The position numbers and the translations under genes are program-made. Positions 25,689 through 51,723 of a stretch of DNA of 53,729 nucleotides are shown piece after piece. How positions within the stretch are numbered: position 1 is the first letter of the stretch; the number at the start of each line of letters is the position of its first letter. This DNA comes from an uncultured bacterium (lineage in GTDB: Bacteria; Muiribacteriota; UBA9980), in the NCBI GenBank assembly GCA_964436235.1, contig CAYTCW010000008.1, positions 2,006 through 55,734 of the forward strand. The letters are read 5' to 3'. A model generated the notes under the pieces. It did no database searches and was not told the DNA's origin. It saw only the letters and a list, made by a program, of their open reading frames with translations.

Positions 25689-25691
25689 CCG

Positions 25692-35985: not shown

Positions 35986-36007
35986 TCTGGTACGATGTAT
36001 TTTATTT

Positions 36008-36032
36008 GGCCGCTCTCTGGCGGCTTTTTTTT
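36008..36032 (+). terminator. Plus-strand intrinsic terminator ~20 nt downstream of promoter A
   Basis: gccgc-tctctg-gcggc followed by eight T residues. Confidence 0.5.
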
Positions 36033-36906
36033 ATGCGGCAAAAAGTTTTCGTTGGGGTTCTTCCGTACGATGCGCTAATCTAATATGGCTCATTACCGTT
36101 TGCTTGCCGTGGTCGTTATAGACAAACGCCGCAACTTCACGGTTGCTATATTGCGATTTAGATAATATCCATTTTCCATAAGGTGTAACGCGCGGATCGC
36201 CGTTTTTTAGTTCTTCGCCTTTCAATCCAAGTTTGTTTGATATGCGTCCGATCATGTTGGCTGATATCTCGATTCCTTCTTTTTTGAGTTCCCGTGATAT
36301 CTGCTCCGCCGTATATTCCGGGCCTTCGATTTGTGGCAACGCGATGATCTTTTGTCCGATCATGATTTCGGTTGCGTGACTGATCATCGATTGAACCGAT
36401 TCAGGAGCGAGGCACGATCTAAATTTCTCCGCCGTTTCCATGAGAAATTTTGCCTGTCTGGTAATTGCGTTCTTCAGGCGAGCGTCAGCGTTTTTGTTTT
36501 TAATTTCGGATTCTAACCTGTCCTGCGGAGATTTCGAAGCGTGACCGAGTTGGCCGGCGGCGTATGCCTGGACGAGATGAGCGACGGCGACTTTGTATTG
36601 GACGGCGCGCGGTTGTCTGGACTCCATAACGATTAATTGAAAACCGATAGGGTCGTAAACTTTCGTGTCGTAGCGCTTGTTGTCAGTAGCCCTCAGTTTG
36701 ACGGTAACTGAAAACTCACTAATATGCTGATTTCTTTCAAGTATATTATCAATGGCTTTTTGCGAATCTGCGTATCCCAGCCACTCGCCGATTGCCTTTC
36801 TGGTAAAATAAGGTTTGCCATTAATTTCTACCGATTCCGATAACTGAATTTCCTGATACTCAAAAGGGACTAAATTAGTCGTTTGATTTTTCATTACGTT
36901 CACCAT
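36031..36906 (-). CDS. Antirepressor-like protein (Bro-N/ORF6N-type N-terminal domain)
   Basis: N-terminus ..LVPFEYQEIQLSESVEINGKPYFTRKAIGEWLGYADSQKAID.. First large gene of the early leftward operon. Confidence 0.6.
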   Translation of the reverse strand: MVNVMKNQTTNLVPFEYQEIQLSESVEINGKPYFTRKAIGEWLGYADSQKAIDNILERNQHISEFSVTVKLRATDNKRYDTKVYDPIGFQLIVMESRQPRAVQYKVAVAHLVQAYAAGQLGHASKSPQDRLESEIKNKNADARLKNAITRQAKFLMETAEKFRSCLAPESVQSMISHATEIMIGQKIIALPQIEGPEYTAEQISRELKKEGIEISANMIGRISNKLGLKGEELKNGDPRVTPYGKWILSKSQYSNREVAAFVYNDHGKQTVMSHIRLAHRTEEPQRKLFAA

Positions 36907-36912
36907 TCCTTT

Positions 36913-37182
36913 TTATTTAATTTCCGTTAGCGGTTCGAACTCCGCCAGATAAGCATCGATGTCCTTGAGATTTTTTTGATATTCCTCTTTAGATTTTGCA
37001 TTTGCCGCTATTTCGTATATTTGAAGCCAACCCATCACGCGCGTAATTAATACGATTTTATTTTTACCATCTTTGATCGTATTAAAAGGCGACGACTCTA
37101 ATTCACGAAGGTCATCGTTAATTTTGTGTTTTATCATTTCTGCGGTACCTTGCAATTCTTGAATTACTGGTTTGTAGTTCAA
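36913..37182 (-). CDS. Hypothetical protein (89 aa)
   Basis: ORF in the early operon. Confidence 0.4.
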   Translation of the reverse strand: MNYKPVIQELQGTAEMIKHKINDDLRELESSPFNTIKDGKNKIVLITRVMGWLQIYEIAANAKSKEEYQKNLKDIDAYLAEFEPLTEIK

Positions 37183-37344
37183 TTAAATTTCACCATCCTT
37201 AAAATTAAAATTTATTCCATCCTGTAAACTTATGCCCGACGATTACGGGCCGAGTCTTCGGGTCGATTTTCGGTTTCATGGCTCACCTTCCTTTTTAATT
37301 GGTATTTTGCTATGCTTATCAAAAACTATCTGTGAGGGTTGATT

Positions 37345-37833
37345 ATGGATGAAACTACCAAATTACTTATCACCGTTACGATTCCGTCTTTAATTTCGTG
37401 TTCCATTACTTTAATTACTCTGTTTTTAAAGAGCAAATGGGATGAAAAAAACCTCCATTTATCTTTTAAATCGAAATACAAAGAAATCGTTCTCAAACAG
37501 CAAATCGAATATTACGAAAAGTTTATGCTTGCAAGTTGGATTTTGTTTGTTAAAATATCCGAATTCTTATACGATACTCATGAAGACGTTAATGAATTAA
37601 TAGCGCATCATAAAACTCTTGTAACGTCTGTTACGATGCACCAACATATTTTTCCCGAAACAGTAAAAAACAAAATGATCGACTACCAAAATGCAATTCA
37701 AAAAGCATTAGATTTTTCAGTTGCGTGCAAAAGACCTATAGAATTAGATAAAATTGAAGCGCTTCTGAATGTATTAGACGAGTCAAGAACGCGAGTTATA
37801 GATTCGATAAAATCGAGTTTATTTGTCGAGTGA
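37345..37833 (+). CDS. Membrane-anchored hypothetical protein (moron)
   Basis: ATG at 37345 with SD GAGGG. N-terminal TM segment LLITVTIPSLISCSITLITLFL. AT-rich and on the opposite strand to its neighbours. Confidence 0.5.
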   Translation: MDETTKLLITVTIPSLISCSITLITLFLKSKWDEKNLHLSFKSKYKEIVLKQQIEYYEKFMLASWILFVKISEFLYDTHEDVNELIAHHKTLVTSVTMHQHIFPETVKNKMIDYQNAIQKALDFSVACKRPIELDKIEALLNVLDESRTRVIDSIKSSLFVE

Positions 37834-38112
37834 TTTATTATAAATAAGTTGATAAATTTTTTCGCCTTTTTCATTGGTTAATATTGCCGTTTTGCTTTGC
37901 AATGGTTGCAGAAGAAAAAATGAAAGTATTGTAGAGAACGTTGTAACAAACAAAACAATAATGAAATTTTCTAAATTAAAAAAAGACGAAGAATTTATTT
38001 TCGGTTCATGTTTGTTTCGGTTTTTTAAAGCGTTTTTAAGCATGACTTTTACCAAGAGATGATAAGGTTCGTGTCCCGGCCATAGTGGTTCGTCTTCGTT
38101 TATTTCACTCAT
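37819..38112 (-). CDS. Membrane hypothetical protein
   Basis: SD GGAAGGAGG. TM segment FIIVLFVTTFSTILSFFLL. Its 3' end overlaps the 3' end of the convergent gene 37345..37833 by 15 nt. Confidence 0.45.
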   Translation of the reverse strand: MSEINEDEPLWPGHEPYHLLVKVMLKNALKNRNKHEPKINSSSFFNLENFIIVLFVTTFSTILSFFLLQPLQSKTAILTNEKGEKIYQLIYNKSLDK

Positions 38113-38152
38113 TTCTTTTCGGCCTCCTTCCCAATCTTACCTTTCTTTTTTA

Positions 38153-38181
38153 TTGACTTATCCCTTAAATCTTGATATAAT
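38153..38181 (+). promoter_or_regulatory. Near-consensus sigma70-type promoter on the plus strand (antisense unit B)
   Basis: TTGACT, 17 nt, TATAAT. Confidence 0.45.
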
Positions 38182-38190
38182 TAAGTCATA

Positions 38191-38230
38191 GGTCGCGAAC
38201 GTTTAAACGTATCGCGGCTTTTTATTTTTT
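38191..38230 (+). terminator. Plus-strand intrinsic terminator ~10 nt downstream of promoter B
   Basis: The hairpin ggtcgcga-ACGTTTAAACGT-atcgcggc has a palindromic inner part and is followed by TTTTTATTTTTT. Confidence 0.5.
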
Positions 38231-38425
38231 AAGTTCAGCCGGCCAGATTTTGTTTTCCGGCTCCTTGAGAATTTTGGCGATCATCGGCCTTACGTTGCGG
38301 CCTGGATATATGCCGTTAGCGATTTTATGTATCCAGTTCATACTCAGGCCGGTTTGCCGGGCGATTTCCTTAATGGTTATGTCTTTTTCAAGCAGGAGCT
38401 TGTAAAAGGCGATGTTTTTTTTCAC
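38222..38425 (-). CDS. Cro-like HTH regulator
   Basis: 67 aa with the HTH ITIKEIARQTGLSMNWIHKIANG. GTG start with SD GAGGTGA. Divergent from the CI-like gene. Confidence 0.65.
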   Translation of the reverse strand: MKKNIAFYKLLLEKDITIKEIARQTGLSMNWIHKIANGIYPGRNVRPMIAKILKEPENKIWPAELKK

Positions 38426-38533
38426 GGTGTCACCTCGCTTTGGGTTTATTATGATGGTGGTTATTTAGTTTTCAATGACGCTATGCGGTTGTTAAAATGT
38501 TTTATTGTTACTATGTTTTAATTTTAAACTATT

Positions 38534-38562
38534 CGTTTAAAAAAGTCAAGAGTTTTTAAACG
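38534..38562. promoter_or_regulatory. Perfect 10-bp inverted repeat (candidate operator or 5'-UTR hairpin)
   Basis: cgtttaaaaa-agtcaagag-tttttaaacg, ending 13 nt upstream of the ATG at 38576. Confidence 0.5.
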
Positions 38563-38575
38563 AAAAATTGAAATT

Positions 38576-38902
38576 ATGTTAAATTTTTCTGAAATACTCG
38601 AAAAGATAAAAGAAATCAAAGGATTCAAGAGTGATAGTGATATTGCCTTGGCTTTGAATATGTCACCGCAAGCTCTATTTAACTATAGAAAACGCGGCAC
38701 CATTCCAGCAGAACAAATTTTAACGTTTTGTTTAAACGAGGATATTTCATCTGACTGGCTTCTTCTTGGCCGCGCCTCCACGCCGCCATCGCCCGCCGTT
38801 GACCGTATAACCCGCTGGCTTAAAGAGCACCCGGACGATGCCGAGGCTATCCTTAAGATCATCGAGGGCCGCGAAGCCATGGAGCGGTTGAAAAAGGGTT
38901 AA
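38576..38902 (+). CDS. CI-like repressor (phage CI N-terminal HTH type), paralogue 1
   Basis: ..KSDSDIALALNMSPQALFNYRKRGTIPAEQILTFC..ISSDWLLLGR. Divergent from the Cro-like gene. No SD. Confidence 0.7.
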   Translation: MLNFSEILEKIKEIKGFKSDSDIALALNMSPQALFNYRKRGTIPAEQILTFCLNEDISSDWLLLGRASTPPSPAVDRITRWLKEHPDDAEAILKIIEGREAMERLKKG

Positions 38903-38934
38903 AGTTGTGATAGAATATAACTGAGGTGATAGTT

Positions 38935-39126
38935 ATGACGTTTGCATCCATCGTTGACGAGACCAGTAAATTGAAGCTTGACGATCTTGAAGTTCTCATC
39001 GACATTCTGAAGAACCGCGCCCGCGAGAAACGCCGCGAGCAGATTTACCGCGCCGCTCTTAAAGGCAGAGCCGATAGGAAAGCCGGTAAGAAGTTTAAGA
39101 CGCTTGACGACCTGAAGAAGATATAA
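38935..39126 (+). CDS. Type II antitoxin (addiction-module component)
   Basis: 63 aa from the ATG at 38935, with SD GAGGTGA. Its stop overlaps the toxin start (TAATG). Confidence 0.6.
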   Translation: MTFASIVDETSKLKLDDLEVLIDILKNRAREKRREQIYRAALKGRADRKAGKKFKTLDDLKKI

Positions 39127-39398
39127 TGCCGAAAATTTCTGCTTACGACTCATTTTCACGTTGCTTTAAGAAGTTTCTGGCTCAGCATCCGAACCTTAAA
39201 AAGAAGATTCTTGAAAGGCTCGAACTGCTCCGGGATAACCCTTATGCGCCCGCGCTTCGTTTTCATAAGTTGACCGGCCGCCTTGAAGATTTTTACGCAA
39301 TTACGATTGATTACGATACTCGAATAGTCATTGACCCTGATTTTGATAACGATACTTTTTATCTGGTTGATATAGGCTCTAATGACGAAGTTTATTGA
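39126..39398 (+). CDS. RelE/ParE-superfamily toxin
   Basis: 90 aa; ..LLRDNPYAPALRFHKLTGRLEDFYAITIDYDTRIV..YLVDIGSNDEVY. Confidence 0.75.
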   Translation: MPKISAYDSFSRCFKKFLAQHPNLKKKILERLELLRDNPYAPALRFHKLTGRLEDFYAITIDYDTRIVIDPDFDNDTFYLVDIGSNDEVY

Positions 39399-39404
39399 TT
39401 TCTG

Positions 39405-39806
39405 TTATTCTTCGTAATTTAATCCGTAATTGTTACGCAGCACATTTCGAGTGAATTCCCCGCCGATGACATCGCGGAGTGCGTATATAAGTTCCGGCGT
39501 TAATGTTGGAAGCGGCGGAGCCATTGAAGGAAATTCCTCGGCCTGATTTTCAAGATCTTCGAATGCTTTCTGGATTACTTCGCTTTCTTCTTGTTGATGA
39601 TAAACTTCTTCATCGGCCTTAGTCAGGGCTAATTTTCCGTATTTTTCGAAAAACGGCGTCGGATCGTACATACCGGCCGGGCATTTGCCCGCCACTTTTT
39701 CTTTTTGAACGGGTTTTATTTTGTGCTCCCAGGCGAAGTAATAAAGAGTTTTATATTTTTTCCCCGTTATTTTGCTGATCTCTTTTAAAGTCATTAATTC
39801 TTCCAT
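39405..39806 (-). CDS. HTH-containing hypothetical protein
   Basis: I prefer the ATG at 39806 (MEELMTLKEISKITGKKYKTLYYF..) with SD GGAAGGTGA. The track start at 40010 adds a low-complexity 68-aa extension. Confidence 0.5.
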   Translation of the reverse strand: MEELMTLKEISKITGKKYKTLYYFAWEHKIKPVQKEKVAGKCPAGMYDPTPFFEKYGKLALTKADEEVYHQQEESEVIQKAFEDLENQAEEFPSMAPPLPTLTPELIYALRDVIGGEFTRNVLRNNYGLNYEE

Positions 39807-40070
39807 TAAATGTTCACCTTCCTTTTCGGTTATCCGATCCGTTTTGATATTTTCTTGAATGCGTCCACTAATTTCAGCTTGTCCCGGTCGATCATCGCCT
39901 GTTCGATTACCTTCAACCACATTCCCATTTCTTCCCTGCTCATTCTGTAATTCCTCCTTTTTGCGTTTGCCGATTTGTTTAAGATGATAAAGCCTGATGT
40001 TTAAACTCATGCGGGCGGCCTTCCTTTATTTGATTAATTTTGCTATTATTCGGGTTGGAAAAATAAATTT

Positions 40071-40298
40071 TTAAAGATGTCTGCCGCATTTTTCGCAGTA
40101 TCGTAAATGATCTGCAGATATTTTTTTTTCTTCATCGTTAGCTTCATAACCGCAAGTCGAGCATTGATATTTCAATGGTACTTTTTTAGTTATAGGGCTT
40201 TCGAATTTTTCACCGCAGTATAAGCAATATCGCGGTATTTCGTTTGAATTATACATTAAATACGGGGCTGAACATTTACTACATATTAAATTACCCAT
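40071..40298 (-). CDS. Double zinc-ribbon protein
   Basis: Four CxxC pairs: CSKC, CLYC, CSTC, CEKC. Confidence 0.55.
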   Translation of the reverse strand: MGNLICSKCSAPYLMYNSNEIPRYCLYCGEKFESPITKKVPLKYQCSTCGYEANDEEKKISADHLRYCEKCGRHL

Positions 40299-40317
40299 TC
40301 CTATTCTCTCCTTTCGT

Positions 40318-40533
40318 TTAATGCTTCACCGTTGCCGTAGGTTCGTTTTCGCTTAACCATAAAAGGTCATAAGATACCTTGAGTGCTTTGGCTATTCTTT
40401 CGCGGATTTCATAACCGGGCGCATGGCCGTTAACCACCGTGCTCAGGTGGTTCGGCGAGACGTTCGCCATTTTCGCCAGTTCGGCCATGCTGATGTTACG
40501 ATCGATGAGAATTTTCTTAAGAATCTTGTTCAC
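40318..40533 (-). CDS. XRE-family HTH regulator (second Cro-like)
   Basis: ISMAELAKMANVSPNHLSTVVNG. Similar in layout to ORF 38222..38425 (..G..PG...R..IAK.LK). Confidence 0.7.
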   Translation of the reverse strand: MNKILKKILIDRNISMAELAKMANVSPNHLSTVVNGHAPGYEIRERIAKALKVSYDLLWLSENEPTATVKH

Positions 40534-40634
40534 GGGTCACCTCCTTAAAGCGGGCCGCGCCGTATAACCTTTCGAAGCATGTTTCGCACTATGGCTACTG
40601 GATCTAATCGGTTATAAAGCGCGGCTTTATTTAT

Positions 40635-40663
40635 TTGACATTGCTATTTAATTGTGTTATAAT
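40635..40663 (+). promoter_or_regulatory. Perfect consensus sigma70 promoter
   Basis: TTGACA, 17 nt, TATAAT, with TGT immediately upstream of -10. Confidence 0.6.
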
Positions 40664-40799
40664 ATGTTTAATTATTGTTTTTCTTTTCTAAAAGCGTACT
40701 TTCTTTTTTTCACGACGTACATTTTTATTATTGGTAGTTTGCGATTGGCCCTCGTTGAGGGTTTTTCGCGTTTTTATTTTAATTAAAGGTGATGAAAGT

Positions 40800-41036
40800 A
40801 TGAGTAAAAAAGGGTTAAAACAATATTCTTTTTGTCTGGAATGCGGACAAAGCTATTATCTGGTTGATTATGACGCTAAATTTTGCGGTTCTTGCGGTAA
40901 ATCACTTTCTACTCATTGCCCGAATCAAAAATGTGGCCGTGAAATTATTGTACCTGACAAGCATTGTGTTTATTGTGGCTATAGAATGATTAAAGATACA
41001 GCAAAATGTACGACGTTTAGAGCCGATTTCGTTTAA
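40800..41036 (+). CDS. Double zinc-ribbon protein
   Basis: ATG at 40800 with SD AAAGGTGA. Motifs CLEC..FCGSCG..CPNQKCG..CVYCG. Paralogous layout to ORF 41708..41941. Confidence 0.6.
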   Translation: MSKKGLKQYSFCLECGQSYYLVDYDAKFCGSCGKSLSTHCPNQKCGREIIVPDKHCVYCGYRMIKDTAKCTTFRADFV

Positions 41037-41037
41037 G

Positions 41038-41283
41038 TTATGTTTTTAATTCTAAATCGCATAAACTGATGTAGGGTTCTTTTGCAATTATTGCGTCGCG
41101 AAGTTTAAAAGCTGCCGATTTTAAATTTTCGGCTGAAGGAAATATAACTATATGAGTTTCTTTGCCGTCGTTAATTAACATTCTATATTGCGGTTCGGAA
41201 TCAGCTTTTAAACATTCGCAATTAATTGAAATCATTTTAGCGATAGTGGCTCGACCATTGTGATCGTTGAATGAAATATACAT
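41038..41283 (-). CDS. Hypothetical protein (81 aa)
   Basis: ATG at 41283 with SD AAGGAGG. Confidence 0.45.
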   Translation of the reverse strand: MYISFNDHNGRATIAKMISINCECLKADSEPQYRMLINDGKETHIVIFPSAENLKSAAFKLRDAIIAKEPYISLCDLELKT

Positions 41284-41311
41284 AAAAAAACCTCCTTGGT
41301 GTGGGAAGAAG

Positions 41312-41569
41312 TTACTCGATCCGGTCGAGGTCAAGAAGAGCTGAAGAAAAACGATAACCCATTATTTGCGGGCCGGACGTGGCCGAAAAACCAGAATAAG
41401 AAAGAAACTCGGCAATTTTAACGAAGGCCTTTTGAGCAAGTTCGCTGTTGGCGAAGTCTAAAGAGTAGGTATCTTTGCTCGTAGAAAGCATAATGCTTGA
41501 TTTGTCGATCCAAAACTGATAGATGTTGTTAACGTTGAAAATGGTTTCTTTAAATTTGATAAATTTCAT
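41312..41569 (-). CDS. Hypothetical protein (85 aa)
   Basis: SD AGGAGG upstream of the ATG. Confidence 0.45.
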   Translation of the reverse strand: MKFIKFKETIFNVNNIYQFWIDKSSIMLSTSKDTYSLDFANSELAQKAFVKIAEFLSYSGFSATSGPQIMGYRFSSALLDLDRIE

Positions 41570-41594
41570 GGTTACCTCCTGTATTGAATTTAAG

Positions 41595-41674
41595 GGCGAA
41601 CGGCCGGATTCGAACCAGCATGTCGTCGGAGTGGTATTCCTTCGTGTTGGCTCTACCGATTGAGCTACGTTCGC
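41595..41674 (-). tRNA. tRNA-like gene with canonical acceptor, D and T arms but an aberrant, over-long anticodon region
   Basis: Minus-strand fold: GCGAACG-TA-GCTC-AATCGGTA-GAGC...GCTGG-TTCGAAT-CCGGC-CGTTCGC-C. There are 30 nt between the D and T arms. The best loop is GGA-ATACCAC-TCC. No CCA is encoded. Confidence 0.5.
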
Positions 41675-41707
41675 CGGGGTTAAATTATTAAGAAAGAAGG
41701 GATATTA

Positions 41708-41941
41708 ATGGTAAGTGCTGTAGATTTCGCACAAAATCATAAAAATTCTGAAGATATTAAACTTGCGATATGTCCGAGTTGTGATAAAGGTGTTTATCCG
41801 TTAGATTCTCAATACAAATTTTGTGGCTATTGCGGAAAAGAATTATCATTAAAATGCCCTAAAGAAACTTGCGGTCAACCTCATTATAATCCCAAACACT
41901 ATTATTGTGTAAATTGTGGCACGAAGGTTAGAGCAATTTAG
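41708..41941 (+). CDS. Double zinc-ribbon protein
   Basis: CPSC..FCGYCG..CPKETCG..CVNCG, with SD GAAGGGA. Confidence 0.6.
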   Translation: MVSAVDFAQNHKNSEDIKLAICPSCDKGVYPLDSQYKFCGYCGKELSLKCPKETCGQPHYNPKHYYCVNCGTKVRAI

Positions 41942-41974
41942 GCTAACGGAACCTGGTCAAACCAAACGTAATTT

Positions 41975-42142
41975 TTAAACATCGAGAGGAAGGCCGCAAT
42001 CGCAGTTCTTTTTTTCACTGTTAGTAATCGTCAGCCGTTCATATGTCCTGCCGCAATGTTTGCATTTGATTTGCGTTTGAACGCGAATATAAAAAGTTAA
42101 AGTTTGTAAAAACTCGGTAAGGGCTTTTAAAAACGCGTGCAT
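41975..42142 (-). CDS. Small zinc-ribbon protein (55 aa, below the ORF-track cutoff)
   Basis: My translation is MHAFLKALTEFLQTLTFYIRVQTQIKCKHCGRTYERLTITNSEKKNCDCGLPLDV. Perfect SD AAGGAGGTGA. Divergent from CI-like paralogue 2. Confidence 0.45.
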   Translation of the reverse strand: MHAFLKALTEFLQTLTFYIRVQTQIKCKHCGRTYERLTITNSEKKNCDCGLPLDV

Positions 42143-42334
42143 GATTCACCTCCTTCGTTTGGTGGTGGTTGTTATTGAAAGTATTTAGTTTTCAAAGGTC
42201 GCAAAGTGCGGCTGGGGTTAATCGGTTTTTGATTAAGTTAGTTGTTAATTCGTGAAGCTCTTATGTTTATTATAACAAGTTTATGGAATAAAGTCAATAC
42301 TTTTTGAAATAATTTAAAAAGTTTTAGGAATATT

Positions 42335-42610
42335 ATGCGCAAAATCATTGAAATAATTGAGATTTTGAGAGAAAACAAATCTTTAAAATCTGAAACACAA
42401 GTTGCAAAAATATTGGGCATGACTCAGCAGGCGTTAGCGCATCATAAGTTAAGAGGTTCTTATCCTTATGAGCAATTAGCCGCTTTCTGCGAGCGGGAGG
42501 GCGTTTCGCTGGACTGGCTCCTACTCGGCCGCGAGCCAGAGAAGCCCGCCGCCGAATCCGACCTCGAGCGCCGGATCACGGAGCTTGAAAAAATAATTAA
42601 AAAGAAGTAG
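42335..42610 (+). CDS. CI-like HTH regulator, paralogue 2
   Basis: MRKIIEIIEILRENKSLKSETQVAKILGMTQQALAHHKLRGSYPYEQLAAFCEREGVSLDWLLLGR, followed by a C-terminal helical tail. Confidence 0.65.
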   Translation: MRKIIEIIEILRENKSLKSETQVAKILGMTQQALAHHKLRGSYPYEQLAAFCEREGVSLDWLLLGREPEKPAAESDLERRITELEKIIKKK

Positions 42611-42633
42611 AATAATAATAAAGAGGCTTAATA

Positions 42634-42831
42634 ATGCCGAGAAAAATTAGAGAGTTAATAACCGATCTGGAACGGGCCGGTTTCGTAAACCACGGCGGGA
42701 AAGGCAGCCACCGTAAATTTGTTTATCAAAAAACAAAAACGATTGTAATTATTTCAGGAAATAACGGTGACGATGCTAAAATATATCAAGAGAAAAAAGT
42801 TAAAGAGGCTATTGAGGAGGCAACTAAATGA
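42634..42831 (+). CDS. hicA: HicA toxin
   Basis: MPRKIRELITDLERAGFVNHGGKGSHRKF.. Confidence 0.85.
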   Translation: MPRKIRELITDLERAGFVNHGGKGSHRKFVYQKTKTIVIISGNNGDDAKIYQEKKVKEAIEEATK

Positions 42832-43067
42832 AATTGTGCGACAAATATATTAAAATAGTCGAATGGTCCGACGAAGACAACTGTTATATAGGCACATGCC
42901 CTGAGCTGTTTTACGGCGGCTGTCACGGCGACGATCCTAAAGCTGTTTTCGCCGAGCTGTGCGAAATTATCGAAGAAGTCGCTGAAATTTATGAAAAAAA
43001 CGGCAATCTGCTTCCAAAGCCCATGACCAGCGATAACATAATTAATATTCTGAAAAAGGCCGCCTGA
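42828..43067 (+). CDS. hicB: HicB antitoxin (N-terminal domain type)
   Basis: ..IVEWSDEDNCYIGTCPELFYGGCHGDDPKAVFAEL..LPKP. There is a 4-nt overlap with hicA. Confidence 0.75.
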   Translation: MKLCDKYIKIVEWSDEDNCYIGTCPELFYGGCHGDDPKAVFAELCEIIEEVAEIYEKNGNLLPKPMTSDNIINILKKAA

Positions 43068-43104
43068 GAAGTATTGCACAATGGCCTCGCGTAATTTATA
43101 ACAT

Positions 43105-43130
43105 AGACCTGATTTAAAAGGGATTAAGAC
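43105..43130. CRISPR. Solitary CRISPR repeat unit (third copy of the 14.7-kb repeat)
   Basis: AGACCTGATTTAAAAGGGATTAAGAC matches repeat 2 of the mini-array in 25/26 positions. It is intergenic, between hicB and CI-like paralogue 3. Confidence 0.65.
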
Positions 43131-43280
43131 ATATTAAGTTGTCAACGAAACGCAACGGCTGTGCTATGGCTAAAGCGTGTTAAGTAGTTTAACGGGTTGT
43201 TAAGTTGTTAATTTTATTGTAACAAATTTTCGTCTATAAGTCAAGACAAAAAGTTGTTATTTTTAAAAATATTTTTATTT

Positions 43281-43553
43281 ATGCGTAAAATAGTTGAAAT
43301 CATTGAGATAATAAGACAACATAAAAATTTAAAAAGCGAAGCGCAAGTCGCGGCGGCTATTAACATGAGCCAGCAAGCGTTAAACAAGCATAAAATTCGC
43401 GGTAGCTATCCCTATGACCAGTTAATAGCCTTTTGCGAAGACGAAAGTTTATCATTCGATTGGCTCGTAATTGGCCGTGAACCGGCCGATAAAGAAAAAG
43501 AGATCGACGAGCTGCGGAAGCTTTTAAAGTCGGTCGAGAAAAAATTGAAATAG
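43281..43553 (+). CDS. CI-like HTH regulator, paralogue 3
   Basis: ATG at 43281: MRKIVEIIEIIRQHKNLKSEAQVAAAINMSQQALNKHKIRGSYPYDQLIAFCEDESLSFDWLVIGR.. Confidence 0.65.
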   Translation: MRKIVEIIEIIRQHKNLKSEAQVAAAINMSQQALNKHKIRGSYPYDQLIAFCEDESLSFDWLVIGREPADKEKEIDELRKLLKSVEKKLK

Positions 43554-43566
43554 TAATGGAGTAAAA

Positions 43567-44241
43567 ATGCTGAAGTGGTTAACGATATTGCTTTCGGCCA
43601 TTTTCTTAATATTTGGTCCTGCATGCGCCGCGGCTGAAATAGATAGCAAACTTTCGAAAGTTGAAAAATATTTTTTTAATTATGGTATAGATCTGTCAAA
43701 ACTAACAACCGAAGAGGTTAAGACCTTATTTGAAGTACCAAAACAGTTCGGCAAAGCCGAAACCGGCGAACTTAATATTAATGACGCAAAGCAATTCGAA
43801 GCCAATCTCAACGCTCTTCACGAATATCTATCTAAAGGATCTAAAATAGAATTTCATTTTAAAGAATTGGAATTCAATTCCTGGTTAAATTATAGAGGGT
43901 TAATATTAATCGATAAACAAAAAGAAATTAAATATATAAAATTTGAATTTGAACCGTCGGTAATAAAAATGTTGATCGCACTTAAAATCAGGGATATTAA
44001 TGTTTATTGCTTGTTGGTGGCCAGTCCTCAAATAAATAGCGAAACCGAAACATTAGATTTAAACTGTAAATATTACATTGGAAATTATGAAATTTCTAAT
44101 AGCGACGGTCTTTTTTATAAACTCTTAAATTATCAATCAAAAATTTCTTTGAATAATTTGAAATTCGGCAATAACGCTTTTCAATTATTGAAAATGGCAA
44201 TGTTAAAAGAAAAACTTGTAATAGAAATTAAAGAAAAATAA
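43567..44241 (+). CDS. Secreted hypothetical protein
   Basis: Signal peptide MLKWLTILLSAIFLIFGPACAAAE. AT-rich. Confidence 0.5.
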   Translation: MLKWLTILLSAIFLIFGPACAAAEIDSKLSKVEKYFFNYGIDLSKLTTEEVKTLFEVPKQFGKAETGELNINDAKQFEANLNALHEYLSKGSKIEFHFKELEFNSWLNYRGLILIDKQKEIKYIKFEFEPSVIKMLIALKIRDINVYCLLVASPQINSETETLDLNCKYYIGNYEISNSDGLFYKLLNYQSKISLNNLKFGNNAFQLLKMAMLKEKLVIEIKEK

Positions 44242-44251
44242 CGGAGGAACC

Positions 44252-44689
44252 ATGTTAAAACGTTTATTAATAATAGTTTTGGGTGTATTTTTATTTATAG
44301 GAACCGCATCGGCGGCAGAAACTCAAGAAGTAAATACCGTTTTACCGATTACGACAGAAATTGAATTATACGACGTAAAGGCCATAATGAGTAAAGGTTC
44401 ATACAGCACACCAACGCCGGGCGTAAGTTTTAAACTTAAAAATAACGGAAAAGATACAATAGAAGACGTTGAAGTGGTAATATTTTTTAAAGACAAAGAC
44501 GGCAAAATAATTCACGAAGAAAGCTATAATCCGCTAAGAAAAATCTTTACAACTCCGCAAAAACTTTTAAAGCCTGGATATATATGGCAAATCGAAAGAG
44601 AAAAGTTTTACCTGGCGCCGAGCGTACCTACCGAATGGAAAGAAGGCGCAGTAGAGGGAAAAATAATAAACATAGTCAAGAAAAAATAA
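44252..44689 (+). CDS. Secreted hypothetical protein
   Basis: Signal peptide MLKRLLIIVLGVFLFIGTASAAE. SD GGAGGAA. Confidence 0.5.
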   Translation: MLKRLLIIVLGVFLFIGTASAAETQEVNTVLPITTEIELYDVKAIMSKGSYSTPTPGVSFKLKNNGKDTIEDVEVVIFFKDKDGKIIHEESYNPLRKIFTTPQKLLKPGYIWQIEREKFYLAPSVPTEWKEGAVEGKIINIVKKK

Positions 44690-44752
44690 AACAGGCACGG
44701 AGGCGCAAGTTAAATATGCTTTTTACACATTGCAATCAAACCGAGAACGGGC

Positions 44753-44782
44753 TTGACATTTTCAAGTTAGTTGTGCTATAAT
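44753..44782 (+). promoter_or_regulatory. Near-consensus sigma70 promoter
   Basis: TTGACA, 18 nt, TATAAT, with TGC immediately upstream of -10. Confidence 0.55.
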
Positions 44783-44812
44783 GTTAATGAAAATAAAGAC
44801 GAGGAGGCCATT

Positions 44813-45019
44813 ATGACGCATACAAGAACTTTTTATTTATTTAACGAGCCTTCTTTTTTCAGTGGAATGTCTCGCACCATGGATATTGGCGGAACCTTTA
44901 ATTCTTATAATAATTCTAAAACACCTGAAGAAGCAGATATACGCGCCTTACAACTCGATTGGCTCTGCGTAGGCGACGATCTCGTTTATGCCATCAATAA
45001 AGGTAAAGAATCGGAATGA
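44813..45019 (+). CDS. Hypothetical small protein (68 aa)
   Basis: ATG at 44813 with SD GAGGAGG. Its stop overlaps the start of the next gene (ATGA). Confidence 0.5.
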   Translation: MTHTRTFYLFNEPSFFSGMSRTMDIGGTFNSYNNSKTPEEADIRALQLDWLCVGDDLVYAINKGKESE

Positions 45020-45453
45020 CTAACAAAAGCCCTATTTTGAAAGACAAAAACAAACCACATTTAATTCAGCAACAATCTGCTTTTTATCACGGGCCGATTC
45101 CGCCCCCTGAAATTTTACAGCGATTTGAGCTTATTCAACCCGGATTCGCCGATCGTATTTTAAAAATGGCAGAAACCCAGGCGGCTCATCGTCAACACCT
45201 TGAAAAATCTGTTATAGAATCGGACATTTCGCTGGCGCATAAAGGGTCTCTTTTTGGTTTTTTAATCGGCCTTGCAGGTATGGTTACCGCCGCATATTTT
45301 GCTCATCTCGGCCACCCCGGCTACGCCACTTTATTTGGTGGCACTACTTTAGGCGGTCTAATCAGTATTTTTGTTTATGGTAAAAAAATGCAAAAACAGC
45401 AACTTGAACAAAAACAAGCCGAAGCAGTCGTGCCTTCAAAGATTAATCAATAA
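45016..45453 (+). CDS. DUF2335-like membrane protein
   Basis: YHGPIPPPEILQRFELIQPGFADRILKMAETQAAHRQHLE, followed by two TM helices. Confidence 0.6.
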   Translation: MTNKSPILKDKNKPHLIQQQSAFYHGPIPPPEILQRFELIQPGFADRILKMAETQAAHRQHLEKSVIESDISLAHKGSLFGFLIGLAGMVTAAYFAHLGHPGYATLFGGTTLGGLISIFVYGKKMQKQQLEQKQAEAVVPSKINQ

Positions 45454-45465
45454 AAAAATATAAAA

Positions 45466-45774
45466 TTGTCAACGATTGAAATCACACAGCCCCGAGTTCG
45501 AACGCGGGGAGTAGAGCCAACAATTTTATTAATTCACGGCTGGCGCTTTTTCTTTTACTCCAACGAAGGAAGCGAGCCGATTCATGTTCATTGCCAGAAA
45601 GGCGACATGGAATGTAAATACTGGTTGAACGTCGATTTTATTGACATCGAGGAAGATTATTCGTATAATATGGGGCCGAAGGACAAACGCGATGTAAGAA
45701 AGATCATATTTGCATATTTCGAATTTATAGAAACTCAATGGAATAAATTTCAGGAGGAACGCCGCCATGAATAA
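45466..45774 (+). CDS. DUF4160-like protein
   Basis: ..GWRFFFYSNEGSEPIHVHCQKGDMECKYWL.. TTG start with no clear SD. Confidence 0.5.
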   Translation: MSTIEITQPRVRTRGVEPTILLIHGWRFFFYSNEGSEPIHVHCQKGDMECKYWLNVDFIDIEEDYSYNMGPKDKRDVRKIIFAYFEFIETQWNKFQEERRHE

Positions 45775-46021
45775 ACGCCATGAAATTACTGACTTGAAAA
45801 TTGAAAACGAAAGCCTGATAATCACGATAGACGGCCAAACCAGAGAGTTTAAACTTGAAGATGTTTCGAAAAGGCTTGCTGGCGCATCCACCGTTGAACG
45901 CTCAAACGTCGTTATATCGCCTTCCGGTTACGGTCTTCACTGGCCGCTGATCGACGAAGATATTTCAATCGACGCACTGCTCGGAATTTCTCATAAGTCT
46001 AAACTCAATAAGGCCGCCTGA
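45767..46021 (+). CDS. DUF2442-like protein
   Basis: ..ITDLKIENESLIITIDGQTREFKL..ISPSGYGLHWPLIDEDISIDALLG. 8-nt overlap with the DUF4160-like gene. Confidence 0.55.
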   Translation: MNKRHEITDLKIENESLIITIDGQTREFKLEDVSKRLAGASTVERSNVVISPSGYGLHWPLIDEDISIDALLGISHKSKLNKAA

Positions 46022-46092
46022 TGTGTTCGAGCGCGGGGAGTAAAGAAATCCATGCTCGTCAGCAACTACTAAAGAAAATAGGAGTCGTACAA

Positions 46093-46320
46093 ATGTCGAA
46101 ATGCCAATATTTACAAATAAATAGTGAATTCAGTATATGCGAAATTCTCTCTCGACTCCCACTCGGATTGGGAGCTGCAGATGAATGTTTTTATAATGAT
46201 CGTAAACTCTATGACGGCATGAATAATTGTGAATTAAGAAAAAAGGGATATAAGTGTACGGCCGAAGAAGCAGAAAATTTTCTAAACAACATTGAAAAAA
46301 ATAATAAAAAAACAGATTAA
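46093..46320 (+). CDS. Hypothetical Cys-containing small protein
   Basis: ATG at 46093 with SD AGGAG. Confidence 0.4.
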   Translation: MSKCQYLQINSEFSICEILSRLPLGLGAADECFYNDRKLYDGMNNCELRKKGYKCTAEEAENFLNNIEKNNKKTD

Positions 46321-46338
46321 AATAAGCGGAGACAAGTA

Positions 46339-46662
46339 ATGAGTGGATGGGAACAAATTTATAATGATAACTCAAATCTATTTAATGATTGTAACAAAGT
46401 ATCATTTGGGTTTATATTAAAAACTAAAACGGGAGATAGCATTTCGATAAAACTTGTAAAAGATAATAAACGTTTTTTCGCCTTCTCAAGCCATTATCCT
46501 AAAGCACCGGATTCAGGAAAAGAATATAAACCAGGCATAAACTTTGGTAGTACTGCTGATGAAGCATTTGAAAATTTACTAAAGGCTTGGAGGCTTTATT
46601 GTATTTCAGACGATCCCACAAAAATAAAATGGATTGAAAATAATTCGTTTGATTTTTTATGA
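46339..46662 (+). CDS. Hypothetical protein (107 aa)
   Basis: ORF with SD GGAG. AT-rich. Confidence 0.4.
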   Translation: MSGWEQIYNDNSNLFNDCNKVSFGFILKTKTGDSISIKLVKDNKRFFAFSSHYPKAPDSGKEYKPGINFGSTADEAFENLLKAWRLYCISDDPTKIKWIENNSFDFL

Positions 46663-46861
46663 ATAGCGCGATCGGCAGACACGAGGGAGGCGGGGAAGCG
46701 GCGGGAACTTGACAATGATCGTAAATAGTAATATAGTCTGGCGGTATCGCATATAATCGAAGGCAATAATAAAATTTCGAAAGAATAAATTATGTTAATT
46801 GAAGAAAAAGTTTTTTTTAAAAATATAATGACGCTTTAATTTATATACATAAAATTTCCCC

Positions 46862-46890
46862 TTGACAAACGCTACTACTAAATATATAAT
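46862..46890 (+). promoter_or_regulatory. Perfect consensus sigma70 promoter upstream of the methylase/ATPase pair
   Basis: TTGACA, 17 nt, TATAAT, 30 nt upstream of the ATG at 46920 (SD AAGGAGG). Confidence 0.6.
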
Positions 46891-46919
46891 TAAATATATT
46901 TTATATTCAAGGAGGCGCC

Positions 46920-47771
46920 ATGCCCAGAACTCCCAGCCCTTTACGATATCCGGGCGGCAAAACAGTTTACGCATCGATGATATCAGAAATAATCCAGGAA
47001 AATAATTTATCGGGCTGTTCCTATGCAGAGCCTTTTGCGGGTGGGGCCGGCGCTGCCATTACGCTATTGTTAAACAATCAAGTCAAAGATATTTGGTTAA
47101 ATGATTTCGACTATTCCATTTATGCTTTTTGGTATTCGATTTTAAAAAGAACAGATGAATTTATTCAAAAAATTATTTTTACCCCTATTACAATCAGTGA
47201 ATGGAAAAAGCAAAAAGCAATATATACCAATAAAAGCGTTAAAAAAGATATACTTTCAATTGGCTTTGCAACTTTTTATCTTAACCGATGCAATCGAGCC
47301 GGAATTTTATTGGCCAACCCCATTGGTGGCATTAACCAAACCGGTAAAGATCAAATTGACGCCAGATTTAAAAAAGAAGTATTAATTTCTAAAATCAAAA
47401 AAATTGCACAGCAAAAAAGTCGGATACATTTATTTAATCTCGACGCGATTGATTTTATTGACGTTATTAAAAAAGAAACATCAAAAATCATGGTCTATTT
47501 TGACCCTCCTTATTATAAAAAGGGAGAATTATTATATTTAAATTTTTATCGTCACAACGATCATAAAAAACTTTCAAAAAAAATCATTAATTCTAAATTA
47601 ACGTGGTTACTTTCTTATGATGACCATCCCGAAATAGTTGATCTGTATAACAAATTTCCGGTTTACAAAAGAAGATTACATTACTCAGTGTCTAATTCAT
47701 CTTGGGCTCAAGAATTAATAATTAGCAACCTAAATATTCCCAAAAATTTAAGAGGTCAAAATGCCAGTTAA
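46920..47771 (+). CDS. Dam-family (D12 class) N6-adenine DNA methyltransferase
   Basis: SPLRYPGGK, EPFAGGAG, NRCNRAG, and YFDPPYY (DPPY catalytic motif). Confidence 0.85.
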   Translation: MPRTPSPLRYPGGKTVYASMISEIIQENNLSGCSYAEPFAGGAGAAITLLLNNQVKDIWLNDFDYSIYAFWYSILKRTDEFIQKIIFTPITISEWKKQKAIYTNKSVKKDILSIGFATFYLNRCNRAGILLANPIGGINQTGKDQIDARFKKEVLISKIKKIAQQKSRIHLFNLDAIDFIDVIKKETSKIMVYFDPPYYKKGELLYLNFYRHNDHKKLSKKIINSKLTWLLSYDDHPEIVDLYNKFPVYKRRLHYSVSNSSWAQELIISNLNIPKNLRGQNAS

Positions 47772-49482
47772 CGAAGGAATAAAAGTTACAAAAATTAAAA
47801 TTGATAAATTTCGCAGATTCGAAAATATTGAATTTGAAATAGGCAAAAATATCACTCTAATTTCAGGTCAAAATGGTACTTCAAAATCTACATTATTGGG
47901 CATGCTCGCTCAACCTTTTTCGTTTGGAGTAATTCAAGGCGAAAAAGCACGCAAACCCGACAATTCAAAATATACAAGTAATTATCACGGTATTAATTTG
48001 GCCGAAAAAATTGATTTAGCGGAAAAACCTTTTGCATATGATTGTGAAGATGTTTTTCGCTTATCGACTACTCACGATTCGATTCAAAAAAACTATGTTT
48101 ACAAACTATACTTATCAGGTAATTGTATCGAACCCGACATTATAAAAAATGGACTTTTAATCCGGACTCAAGCGCGACCCAAAAAACGCAATGAAAAAGT
48201 TGCACGTATTCGATTTGTAACCAGTCCTGGTTCAAAATCAAGTAGCGGAGCCGGAGAAGGCAATTTCCCGCATCCTGTAATTTATTTTGGGTTAAATCGT
48301 CATTGGCCAATGGCGCTTTTAAAAAAAGTTACAGTGGAGCTTCATCAAGGAATGGACAAACAAGATGAAGAATGGTTTACTGAAAAATATAAAGATATTT
48401 TACTCCTAAATCAAGAGCAACATCGGCTTGAACAAATAAAAACCGATTTTGGAGCAAAAAAAAATTTGCTTAGTGCTGCCGGTTGCGATTATGATGGTGA
48501 AAGTTTATCTGCTGGGCAAGATAACCTTGGTCAAATTTTAGCCGCCGTTCTTTCTTTCAAGCGCCTTAAGAAAGATTTGGGACAAAAATATCAAGGTGGG
48601 CTAATTTTAATTGACGAAATCGATTCGACGTTACATGCTTGGGCCCAAATTCGTTTATTTGAATTATTATCCGAAGTTTCTAAAGAGTATCAATTGCAAA
48701 TTGTCGCTACAACACACTCGATGTTTTTGCTTAAACATGCTTTTCAGTCAAGTTTAAGAAAAGATGTGAAAGTAATATATTTAAAAAGAGAAGATAACGG
48801 CATTGTTGATAGTGGTTTTAGTTCGTTTGAAGAAATAGAAAATAACTTAACGGTTCAGTTCAAACCCAAAATCCCCAAAACCGTTTCAAAGATTTCATAT
48901 ATTTTTGAAGATAACATAACAAAAGAAATGTTTTTTGGAATTATCGGCAATTCGCTTAACAAATATTTTAAACTTCATACGTTAAAATCTATAAGTGCCT
49001 GTACGTTAGCGAGTATTGCATACCTTAAAGTACCAGAGTTCAAAAATGTTTTAATGGTTGTCGATGGAGATGTAAGATCTAAAATGCCTAAAAACATTGA
49101 AAATTTAATTATCTTGCCTGGAAATCATAGACCAGAAACGCTATTATATCTTTGTCTTAGAGACTTAAAAGATTCAGATCAATTTTGGAAGAATTCTAAT
49201 TTTACCGGCTATTCAAAACAAGCTGTTATTGGCACATATCAATCACAGCTTGATAAGGCGGATTTAGATTCTGATGTGGATAAACCCAAATTTAAAGCTT
49301 GGTATGATAAACATAGAAAATGTTGGGGAATTAAAAGTAACATCGCTTTTCAAAAATGGGCCGAAATCAATAAAAACGAATGTAAACAATTTTGTAAATC
49401 GTTTTTTGAAATTCTCAATAAAATATTACATGGTCGCATTTCAAAAGCCGAATACGATAAAATTTTTAAAAAATATTCATAA
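47761..49482 (+). CDS. ABC-type (OLD/AAA_15-21-like) ATPase with a C-terminal Toprim-like region
   Basis: Walker A GQNGTSKST, signature LSAGQ, Walker B LILIDEIDSTLH, H-loop VATTHS. The C-terminus has IFEDN ... VVDGDVR ... LPGNHRPE. The start overlaps the methylase stop by 11 nt. Confidence 0.7.
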   Translation: MPVNEGIKVTKIKIDKFRRFENIEFEIGKNITLISGQNGTSKSTLLGMLAQPFSFGVIQGEKARKPDNSKYTSNYHGINLAEKIDLAEKPFAYDCEDVFRLSTTHDSIQKNYVYKLYLSGNCIEPDIIKNGLLIRTQARPKKRNEKVARIRFVTSPGSKSSSGAGEGNFPHPVIYFGLNRHWPMALLKKVTVELHQGMDKQDEEWFTEKYKDILLLNQEQHRLEQIKTDFGAKKNLLSAAGCDYDGESLSAGQDNLGQILAAVLSFKRLKKDLGQKYQGGLILIDEIDSTLHAWAQIRLFELLSEVSKEYQLQIVATTHSMFLLKHAFQSSLRKDVKVIYLKREDNGIVDSGFSSFEEIENNLTVQFKPKIPKTVSKISYIFEDNITKEMFFGIIGNSLNKYFKLHTLKSISACTLASIAYLKVPEFKNVLMVVDGDVRSKMPKNIENLIILPGNHRPETLLYLCLRDLKDSDQFWKNSNFTGYSKQAVIGTYQSQLDKADLDSDVDKPKFKAWYDKHRKCWGIKSNIAFQKWAEINKNECKQFCKSFFEILNKILHGRISKAEYDKIFKKYS

Positions 49483-49514
49483 AAATGGGTTTCCCCTTCT
49501 CAGCGTGGCTTTTT

Positions 49515-50332: not shown

Positions 50333-50480
50333 TTGAATTTTCCTTTCTTTTAATTGATTTTAACCTTTAAGTCTGATTTCGTTTACTTTCATTTGACTTC
50401 TATATTTAAATGTGTTAATATATAATCGAGAGTAGAAAGTATAATCAAATTAGTGTTTTAAGGTATAAGGAGAGAAAACT

Positions 50481-51576: not shown

Positions 51577-51723
51577 TTATTCTTTTGTTTCTACATCCAG
51601 ATAAATATTACTTCCGATAGGGTAATCAATATTTGGAATACTGCAGATAAGACCGTCGGGAAATTTTATCCTTGTAATTCGGCCGCGTCGTTCTATAACC
51701 TGAGCGATGTATTTTTTTTTCAT
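51577..51723 (-). CDS. Hypothetical small protein (48 aa, below the ORF-track cutoff)
   Basis: My translation is MKKKYIAQVIERRGRITRIKFPDGLICSIPNIDYPIGSNIYLDVETKE. SD AAAGGTGA. Confidence 0.35.
   Translation of the reverse strand: MKKKYIAQVIERRGRITRIKFPDGLICSIPNIDYPIGSNIYLDVETKE

Follow-up and report, generated by a model that had tools for sequence, protein, structure and literature searches.

A solitary type III-associated CRISPR repeat beside a CI-like repressor module of a temperate phage

We analyzed a 53,729-nt stretch of DNA from the assembly of an uncultured bacterium (GenBank GCA_964436235.1, contig CAYTCW010000008.1, positions 2,006 to 55,734; hereafter, the window), which is a temperate siphovirus-like phage, and focused on a solitary CRISPR repeat unit located between the toxin-antitoxin pair hicAB and a gene for a CI-like helix-turn-helix (HTH) protein. 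The phage encodes a terminase, a tape measure protein, RecT/YqaJ, SSB, RusA and an integrase, and its low-GC accessory island harbors three CI-like HTH genes, several toxin-antitoxin pairs including hicAB, methylases and a PD-Lambda-5-like gene. Judged by sequence and surroundings, what the phage carries is a solitary repeat of a type III-associated family, located in a recurrent repeat slot beside a CI-like repressor module. The following features define the locus.

42634-42831, plus strand: hicA (HicA_toxin, 2.6e-11)
42828-43067, plus strand: hicB, with HicB-family relatives so named by their sources
43095-43130, plus strand: full-length 36-nt unit as aligned by a covariance model (model positions 1-36)
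43105-43130, plus strand: conserved core of the solitary unit, with the hairpin CCT (43108-43110) / AGG (43119-43121)
43123-43130, plus strand: 8-nt CRISPR RNA (crRNA) tag ATTAAGAC, with the expected Cas6 cut between 43122 and 43123
43281-43553, plus strand: CI-like HTH paralogue 3 (Pfam Phage_CI_repr, 3.4e-5), 64% identical to paralogue 2

Results

A solitary repeat unit downstream of hicAB

The 26-mer AGACCTGATTTAAAAGGGATTAAGAC lies at 43105-43130 on the plus strand. With up to three mismatches allowed, its closest other copy in the window is at 14731-14756 on the plus strand (one mismatch, 25/26), in agreement with the match to a mini-array repeat reported by the first-pass annotation of this DNA. 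No further copy was found in the window within this limit (expectation from shuffled sequence, 0.00), and a third, shorter by a 1-nt deletion, occupies 14659-14683. We then scanned the whole window, with filters off, using a covariance model trained solely on 17 cellular repeat variants, which gave the following scores.

43095-43130, plus strand: solitary unit, 48.9 bits, E 1.8e-8, the top match of the window
14722-14756, plus strand: mini-array repeat R2, 42.2 bits, E 4.9e-7
14649-14683 (covariance-model extent), plus strand: mini-array repeat R1, 25.2 bits, E 0.0023
51632-51653: next-best match after these three, 10.6 bits, E 3.4

The model thus matched only three places in 53.7 kb, all on the plus strand, and neither mini-array repeat lies within 28 kb of the solitary unit. 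The 5' 10-12 nt of the 36-nt unit have diverged: in the variable stretch of the consensus, ~7/12 positions agree. A -10-like TATAAC lies within these diverged nucleotides. The hairpin of the unit is predicted at -3.0 kcal/mol, and its 3-bp stem is the same as that of the Methylothermaceae repeat.

The unit is separated from the hicB stop (43067) by 37 nt, one fewer than first annotated, and the ATG of CI-like paralogue 3 (43281, set by alignment to paralogue 2) follows 150 nt past the unit, as had been estimated. No second repeat was found in 43131-43280 with four repeat versions (best local score 14, against a window-wide null mean of 14-15) or with the covariance model, which extends the earlier statement that the unit stands alone to 150 nt. 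A degenerate second repeat at ~43171-43208, suspected by eye, scored no better than chance. No Cas family was present among the matches listed for the window (top 25 Pfam and PADLOC families, 75 open reading frames (ORFs)). The unit is therefore a single repeat on a mobile element, with neither a second repeat nor adjacent cas genes, which is the definition of a solitary repeat unit, and its sequence and hairpin resemble those of real CRISPR-Cas repeats, as is looked for in candidate RNA anti-CRISPRs (Racrs). The definition of a mini-array, at least two repeats around a spacer, applies to 14659-14756 and excludes the solitary unit.

Rfam at the gathering threshold returned no CRISPR family in the window; below threshold, CRISPR-DR8 matched the minus strand with 23.5 bits against a gathering score of 39. 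The weak hairpin and U-rich tract previously pointed out downstream of the unit proved not to be significant, as no plus-strand terminator was called in 42200-43700 and the fold of 43100-43285 has a z of -0.51. The CCU/AGG hairpin of the repeat nevertheless appears in both the minimum free energy and the centroid folds of 43100-43285.

The repeat family in cellular genomes

A 20-nt core of the repeat, scanned against one genome per species, was found in 37 stretches, ~25 of which are arrays with a period of ~70 nt. The arrays are carried by several Thiothrix species, Thiorhodospira sibirica, a Methylothermaceae metagenome-assembled genome (MAG), Ottowia, a betaproteobacterium and gammaproteobacterial MAGs, and three members of the plasmid collection, from Methylocaldum szegediense, Thiothrix lacustris and Arcobacter cloacae, also contain arrays of the family. 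Thiotrichales, Methylococcales and other groups widely carry the family, and single 20-mer matches also occur in Flavobacteriia and Bacillota genomes. Counterparts of the repeat in cellular CRISPR loci, whose absence would have spoken against the proposals of the first-pass annotation, are abundant.

The cellular repeats are 36-37 nt long, and their spacers are mostly 33-35 nt, with a modal length of 34 nt. Across 17 distinct variants, positions 1-12 are variable and positions 13-36 near-invariant, and the phage unit copies exactly the near-invariant part, that is, the hairpin and the 8-nt tag. It shares 23 nt with the Thiothrix-type repeats and 25 nt with the Methylothermaceae repeat. Repeats of Methylocaldum and Arcobacter share the AGACCTG version of the stem, and the stem covaries, being CCT/AGG in the unit and CCC/GGG in Arcobacter.

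The genes beside the arrays associate this family with type III. In Thiothrix caldifontis (L013), the array is accompanied by Cmr6 (TIGR01898, 5.5e-19) and a TIGR02221 Csx1-like protein. A Csm6-family ring nuclease (TIGR02584) lies beside the arrays of T. moscowensis (L009) and of L006, the latter also having TIGR02221, and a type III RAMP-family gene (TIGR03986, 3.7e-90) flanks the array of T. fructosivorans (L032). Cas1 and Cas2 flank the arrays in L038 and L006, and on the Arcobacter plasmid pACLO a reverse transcriptase, Cas1 and Cas2 (RT-Cas1-Cas2) lie beside an array of the family. The cellular loci inspected span 8 kb each, a length within which no full effector operon was seen. The repeat family is type III-associated, and III-B wherever an effector gene was seen.

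In the cellular loci, the order is cas genes, leader and array, with a degenerate terminal repeat farthest away; therefore, the crRNA sense reads ...GGGATTAAGAC. In this sense, the repeat forms a short hairpin, CC(C)T/AGG(G), and the 8 nt immediately after it are a tag of the ATTGAAAC class. The solitary unit and both mini-array repeats are in crRNA sense on the plus strand, and the spacer of the mini-array, being complementary to the mRNA of the tail tube gene (see below), independently backs this sense. The first-pass annotation had considered that host repeats might be in the minus sense; the cellular arrays instead read in the plus sense relative to the unit. The unit accordingly has the properties expected of a type III crRNA precursor, namely a Cas6-type hairpin and tag in host-array sense, and an association with type III effector genes.

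A repeat slot at the edge of the CI-like module

The unit ends where a conserved regulatory block begins. The window contains three paralogous CI-like modules, and the homology of this block among them starts exactly at the last base of the unit.

38222-38902, 41975-42610 and 43131-43553: the three CI-like modules, each with a conserved outward-facing promoter
43131-43280: conserved regulatory block of the CI-like module, common to window modules 1 and 2 and to the related loci L060-L064

A divergent small gene is present in modules 1 and 2, encoding an HTH protein and a zinc ribbon, respectively. Tandem GTTGTTAA motifs lie at the start site of the module promoter and may be operators. Relatives of CI-like paralogue 3 are 58-91% identical to it, and all those fetched carry the block; a CI-like profile detected no relatives in IMG/VR. 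The equivalent junctions are occupied as follows.

L060 (CI-like protein 91% identical), 409-440: GTCGCGCCTTTTATAGGCGCGTGGGTTGAAAC, ending where the block begins, with a minus-strand tRNA-Trp 4 nt away
L062 and L063 (CI-like protein 60% identical), 2824-2855: TTCGCGCCTTGTATAGGCGCGTAGGTTGAAAC, a variant of the L060 unit
L064, first module, 444-475: repeat-like unit with hairpin CCCT/AGGG and tag ATTGAAAC
Window module 2, 42174-42181, plus strand: ATTGAAAG alone, a canonical crRNA tag sequence
L061, L064 second module and window module 1: nothing at the junction

In L060, L062 and L063 alike, the unit stands alone. We take the L060/L062 unit to resemble the canonical I-C repeat, GTCGCGCCCCGCACGGGCGCGTGGATTGAAAC. 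This I-C-type unit is a member of a real repeat family, because eight copies of it form an array in the IMG/VR contig L095, spaced with a period of 65-66 nt; the same repeat is solitary in other viral contigs. In L063, TGCGCGTGGATTTAAAC at 1735-1751 lies ~1.1 kb upstream of the solitary unit and is close to the 3' half of the canonical I-C repeat; it may represent another, degenerate unit. The L064 unit could not be confirmed to belong to a real CRISPR family, since the matches in a 16-mer scan were coincidental and the type III model gave it 8.2 bits. The ATTGAAAG of window module 2 aligns with the tag of this L064 unit, with flanking AACCACCA..GGAGGTG common to both, and is probably the relic tag of a lost repeat unit. 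In these alignments, at least two verified CRISPR repeat families lie at the same junction, in the same orientation, beside a conserved HTH module, in a set of relatives that comprises four loci, mostly on short contigs, two of which share their I-C unit by common ancestry.

Sequence after the tag and transcription signals

Two further features lie within the block.

43131-43164, plus strand: the 34 nt that follow the tag; in a type III crRNA derived from the unit, they would serve as the guide
43216-43244, minus strand: sigma-70-like promoter TTGACT-17-TACAAT with an upstream TG (10/12), reading first the block and then, in antisense, the repeat

The 34-nt run is identical in L061 and L064 (38/40 overall), where it lacks a repeat and is preceded by the 8 nt TCTGGGGT, which match the tag at 2/8 positions; these contigs come from different sequencing runs. 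No match to 43131-43164 beyond chance was found elsewhere in the window, and a degenerate codon-aware pattern of the post-unit sequence gave 0 matches in IMG/VR. In 387 kb of fetched loci including cas flanks, among which the host locus of this phage is not represented, no match was longer than 12 nt.

All statements on transcription are matches to promoter or terminator consensus sequences. The same minus-strand promoter is found in the relatives, with 10/12 (with TG) in L060, 11/12 in L062 and 12/12 in L064, and in all these loci it is followed by a leader of 63-78 nt and then the repeat, at a comparable leader distance. On the plus strand, no terminator was called between hicB and the unit, and read-through from hicAB could possibly transcribe the unit in sense. 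Just upstream in sense, TTGCAC-17-TATAAC is a weak promoter-like match seen by eye, without the conserved final T.

A mini-array of the same family

The two other repeats in the window form a mini-array next to the tail tube gene.

14659-14756, plus strand: mini-array, with R1 at 14659-14683 (5'-truncated), spacer at 14684-14721 and R2 at 14722-14756
14756-16078, minus strand: tail tube gene (Pfam Phage_tube_2)

The mini-array sits between the stop codon of the tube gene and a minus-strand terminator at 14625-14602. Its spacer matches the tube gene of the phage itself at 15150-15188 in 31/38 positions (shuffled-query maximum, 25). Of the seven mismatches, six are at codon position 3, and the two peptides encoded are one residue apart; we therefore take the spacer to derive from the tube gene of a related phage. 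Read in crRNA sense, it can pair with the tube mRNA, which is what type III systems need in order to target RNA. Relatives of the tube gene (51-56% identity) have no array at this position, and a degenerate codon-aware pattern for the spacer gave 0 matches in IMG/VR. An extended -10, TGCTATACT, was seen by eye immediately upstream of R1. The truncation point of R1 is that of the solitary unit, which suggests that the hairpin and tag are a sufficient working unit for this phage.

Solitary and borrowed copies elsewhere

Three unrelated IMG/VR viral contigs each have a solitary, full-length repeat that belongs to the type III family (38-44 bits).

L053, 6494-6530; L056, 1483-1518; L059, 4793-4829

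The L053 repeat has a terminator-like hairpin 6 nt downstream in sense, and in L053 and L059 an opposite-strand gene begins 12-24 nt from the repeat. A 20-mer scan of IMG/VR gave 0 matches, and with a looser pattern 5/8 matches fell within long ORFs and appear coincidental. A 24-mer scan of the JGI metagenomes returned a Methylothermaceae contig only, and neither IMG/VR nor the JGI metagenomes nor the GTDB genomes yielded a close relative that has this unit.

Mobile elements in these hosts repeatedly borrow this CRISPR system. Cas-less arrays of the family are present on the T. lacustris plasmid pThlacMK1_1 (L045, 11297-11475; 3 repeats) and on a Methylocaldum szegediense plasmid (L044, 5290-6393; 16 repeats), both small plasmids with phage-like genes (siphovirus Gp157 family, recombinases). 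Solitary-looking repeats in Ca. Thiothrix singaporensis (L001 and L007, CP059265) were set aside as repeats split by insertion: an IS4/Tn5-family insertion sequence with a 442-aa transposase lies in repeat loops at at least three places, duplicating GATTTAAAAG. Such insertions break arrays into pieces that mimic solitary truncated repeats.

Other features of the window

The GC content is 0.36-0.39 at 36000-51000 and 0.38 at 12000-15000 (the tape-measure end and the mini-array), compared with 0.45-0.48 elsewhere. At 46920-49482, a D12-class adenine methylase is followed by a 573-aa AAA protein (PADLOC PD-Lambda-5_B, 1.2e-108), a prophage-borne defense system. A tRNA at 41595-41674 on the minus strand (Rfam, 42.5 bits) was missed by ARAGORN, and a 79-nt tRNA-Gly(acc) at 25612-25690 on the minus strand, called by ARAGORN, has no Rfam counterpart. 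Megablast of 30000-53729 against the phage collection gave no match, and exact look-ups of the window's hicB and tube proteins returned no record.

Discussion

Solitary repeat units of phages act as Racrs against types I-C, I-E, I-F and V-A (PMC10651486). Such units have been catalogued for all CRISPR types but VI, with only these four tested, and a predicted sense promoter within ~250 bp upstream was one criterion of their selection (PMC10651486). Viral mini-arrays, in turn, target related viruses (PMC11656645).

Our best explanation of the unit, which we hold with moderate confidence, is that it would give rise to a sense RNA which, after cleavage by host Cas6, would be loaded as a crRNA mimic into type III complexes, serving as a Racr-like decoy and possibly as a guide. 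From the identity, orientation, type III association and solitary state of the repeat, its slot and the lack of an upstream terminator, we infer transcription, Cas6 cutting, loading and an effect on immunity, as follows. Read-through from hicAB would transcribe the unit on the plus strand, where it would also form the 5' part of the CI-like paralogue 3 RNA. Host Cas6 would recognize the CCU/AGG hairpin and cut 8 nt before the end of the repeat, and the 3' product, headed by the authentic tag AUUAAGAC, would enter type III effector complexes and have its 3' end trimmed by host nucleases. The mimic would thereby fill Cas6 and effector complexes with phage RNA and dilute the host guides, in the fashion of a Racr. 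The body of the mimic would be conserved leader sequence, which could direct the effector to the early minus-strand leader RNA of repeat-less relatives, with the leader of the phage itself marked as self by full complementarity to the tag. Type III crRNAs are trimmed at the 3' end by host nucleases, and the 5' tag suffices for them, with no downstream repeat needed.

Among the classes proposed by the first-pass annotation, an RNA anti-CRISPR built on a solitary repeat is the leading candidate, in view of the faithful core, the solitary state, a phage without listed Cas families and the slot in relatives. The presence of two repeat families at the same junction, beside a conserved HTH gene, resembles the variable anti-CRISPR (acr) genes upstream of anti-CRISPR-associated (aca) genes, and CI-like paralogue 3 is a possible Aca-like regulator. 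Inhibition is favored as the function common to the whole slot, because the I-C versions have no TTC protospacer adjacent motif (PAM) before the block in the relatives seen.

Several observations weigh against this explanation. In a scan for sigma-70-like sites, no plus-strand promoter was found between 42857 and 43105, that is, within the ~250 bp used for Racrs; the nearest useful promoter-like site is at 42585-42613, ~490 nt upstream of the unit, and the TTGCAC-17-TATAAC closer by is weak. The only strong conserved promoter near the unit reads the repeat in antisense. L060, L062 and L064 likewise have no plus-strand promoter upstream of the repeat, and their flanking gene or tRNA is on the other strand. 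The promoter matches are thus stronger for antisense than for sense, and the strand is the main uncertainty. The closest hicB relatives (72-81% identity) have no repeat downstream. The host Cas6 may need the 5' part of the full 36-nt repeat that the truncated unit lacks. Through its mini-array the phage exploits the same CRISPR family, which is awkward to reconcile with a strongly inhibitory role against it. The validated Racrs do not include one for type III, and 269 spacers from cellular arrays matched the window with 12-16-mers only.

The promoter evidence leads to a different reading, which we consider unlikely: the minus-strand promoter (43244-43216) would produce an RNA of the 63-78 nt leader and the reverse complement of the repeat, and this would pair with the repeats of pre-crRNA (23-26 nt here, 32 nt for I-C), blocking Cas6/Cas5 or triggering cleavage of double-stranded RNA, so that crRNAs are depleted. 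This promoter is the strongest near the repeat in every related locus, and all of them have the repeat in antisense to it, after a leader of similar length. In L060, the tRNA-Trp begins 4 nt past the anti-repeat on that strand, and RNase P would free an RNA of leader and anti-repeat; in L064, L053 and L059, an opposite-strand gene starts ~12-40 nt off, which would place the complement of the repeat in its 5' untranslated region (UTR). However, an anti-repeat RNA against class 1 systems is without precedent in PMC10651486, PMC11656645 and bioRxiv 2024.10.29.618823, the promoters are consensus matches only, and the shared orientation may stem from common descent rather than selection. In the window, moreover, nothing recognizable follows the anti-repeat, and the RNA would continue antisense into hicB, while the L053 repeat is directly trailed by a terminator on the sense strand. 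Slightly less probable still is the broader idea that the slot is a swap-in site for the complement of the host's repeat type (III here, I-C in L060 and L062), blocking crRNA maturation by antisense.

Alternatively, the sense RNA may have been selected for targeting rather than inhibition, as a single-repeat guide for superinfection exclusion, a reading that shares its early steps with our best explanation and that we regard as improbable, to about the same degree as an antisense RNA. The tag and 34-40 nt of the block would steer type III complexes to the early leader RNA of repeat-less relatives, complementing the CI-like repressors and the mini-array. The identity of the 34 nt with L061 and L064, which have no repeat and match the tag at only 2/8 anti-tag positions, is consistent with this, as are the conserved minus-strand promoter, which would supply the complementary target RNA, the agreement of 34 nt with the modal spacer length of cellular arrays, the targeting of a relative's gene by the mini-array in the same mRNA-complementary sense, and the established maturation of type III crRNAs, in which only the 5' tag is needed. 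Yet the sequence in question is a homologous regulatory block, for which identity with relatives is expected without targeting; the I-C repeats of L060 and L062 have no TTC PAM before the block in any relative seen; and the resident phage's own leader RNA would be cut too.

The unit could also be an inert relic, a collapsed mini-array that lost its spacer by repeat-repeat recombination or an arrival with hicAB, with no present function. The array remnant raised at first annotation is still a rival in this form, and we consider it rather doubtful. The homology between modules starts exactly at the 3' end of the unit, which places the unit at a rearrangement junction; the 8-nt relic of module 2 indicates that units at the slot do decay; L061 and the second module of L064 manage without one; and the searches in IMG/VR, JGI metagenomes and GTDB genomes found no close relative with the same unit. 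Against decay stand the perfect core, which scores above both mini-array repeats, the recurrence of at least two verified families at this junction in relatives, always equally oriented, and the solitary copies in three unrelated viral contigs. Far less probable than any of these, and rejected on the orientation and type of the cellular arrays, is a tracr-like anti-repeat in the plus-strand 3' UTR of hicAB, also proposed at first annotation. It is a formal possibility, with the sub-threshold minus-strand match to CRISPR-DR8 as its trace in Rfam, but a plus-strand RNA is in the sense of the cellular arrays, the cas genes beside these arrays are type III, and neither a scaffold (fold z = -0.51) nor a terminator was found. 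Type III systems process crRNA by Cas6, without tracrRNA.

Compared with known systems, the unit is closest to the Racrs (RacrIF1, RacrIC1, RacrIE and RacrVA; Camara-Wilpert et al. 2023, PMC10651486), with which it shares a single phage repeat without adjacent cas genes, near-identity in sequence and hairpin to cellular repeats, and a position in an accessory or anti-defense region with a small HTH gene adjoining. By contrast, it is type III-associated, has no clear sense promoter within 250 bp and belongs to a phage that also has a targeting mini-array of the same family; in type III, moreover, a lone repeat should give a crRNA that can be loaded, and not the aberrant filament of Cas7. The viral mini-arrays of Saccharolobus SPV1/SPV2 and others (reviewed in PMC11656645) are paralleled by the window's mini-array, with its spacer from a relative's tube gene, and by the match of the post-unit sequence to relatives, whereas the solitary unit has one repeat, followed by homologous regulatory DNA and not by an acquired spacer. 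As in acr-aca operons, a variable element (type III here, I-C-type in L060 and L062) lies upstream of a conserved HTH gene with operator-like repeats; unlike in these, the element is an RNA motif and not a protein gene, no operon promoter was found, and the HTH protein is of the phage CI type. Cracr (bioRxiv 10.1101/2024.10.29.618823) and CreA/CreR (10.1101/2023.03.03.530964) also combine a repeat-derived handle with a non-canonical spacer, and the unit could similarly reprogram Cas proteins; those systems are V-A and type I and match cas or toxin promoters, whereas the unit is type III-associated, with no match found to the available cas loci. The likeness to tracrRNAs (type II, V-B) lies in repeat complementarity alone, and for a minus-strand transcript, while the CRISPR type, the strand first proposed and the absence of a scaffold set them apart.

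The locus goes beyond a routine example of a solitary repeat unit in its type III context, its co-resident mini-array of the same family, its slot with exchangeable repeats beside an HTH gene and its conserved antisense promoter. As a candidate for type III it is concrete, its predicted cut being at a defined site (43122/43123), and comparisons are at hand in its own mini-array (internal), the I-C-type relatives (natural) and the repeat-less relatives (negative). The locus also raises the question of which strand of a phage repeat unit is active; if the antisense reading were true, the phage would have an RNA anti-CRISPR that acts in antisense on class 1 systems, and PMC10651486, PMC11656645 and bioRxiv 2024.10.29.618823 describe no such mechanism. 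More broadly, the repeat slot could anchor the genomic discovery of RNA anti-CRISPRs of any type.

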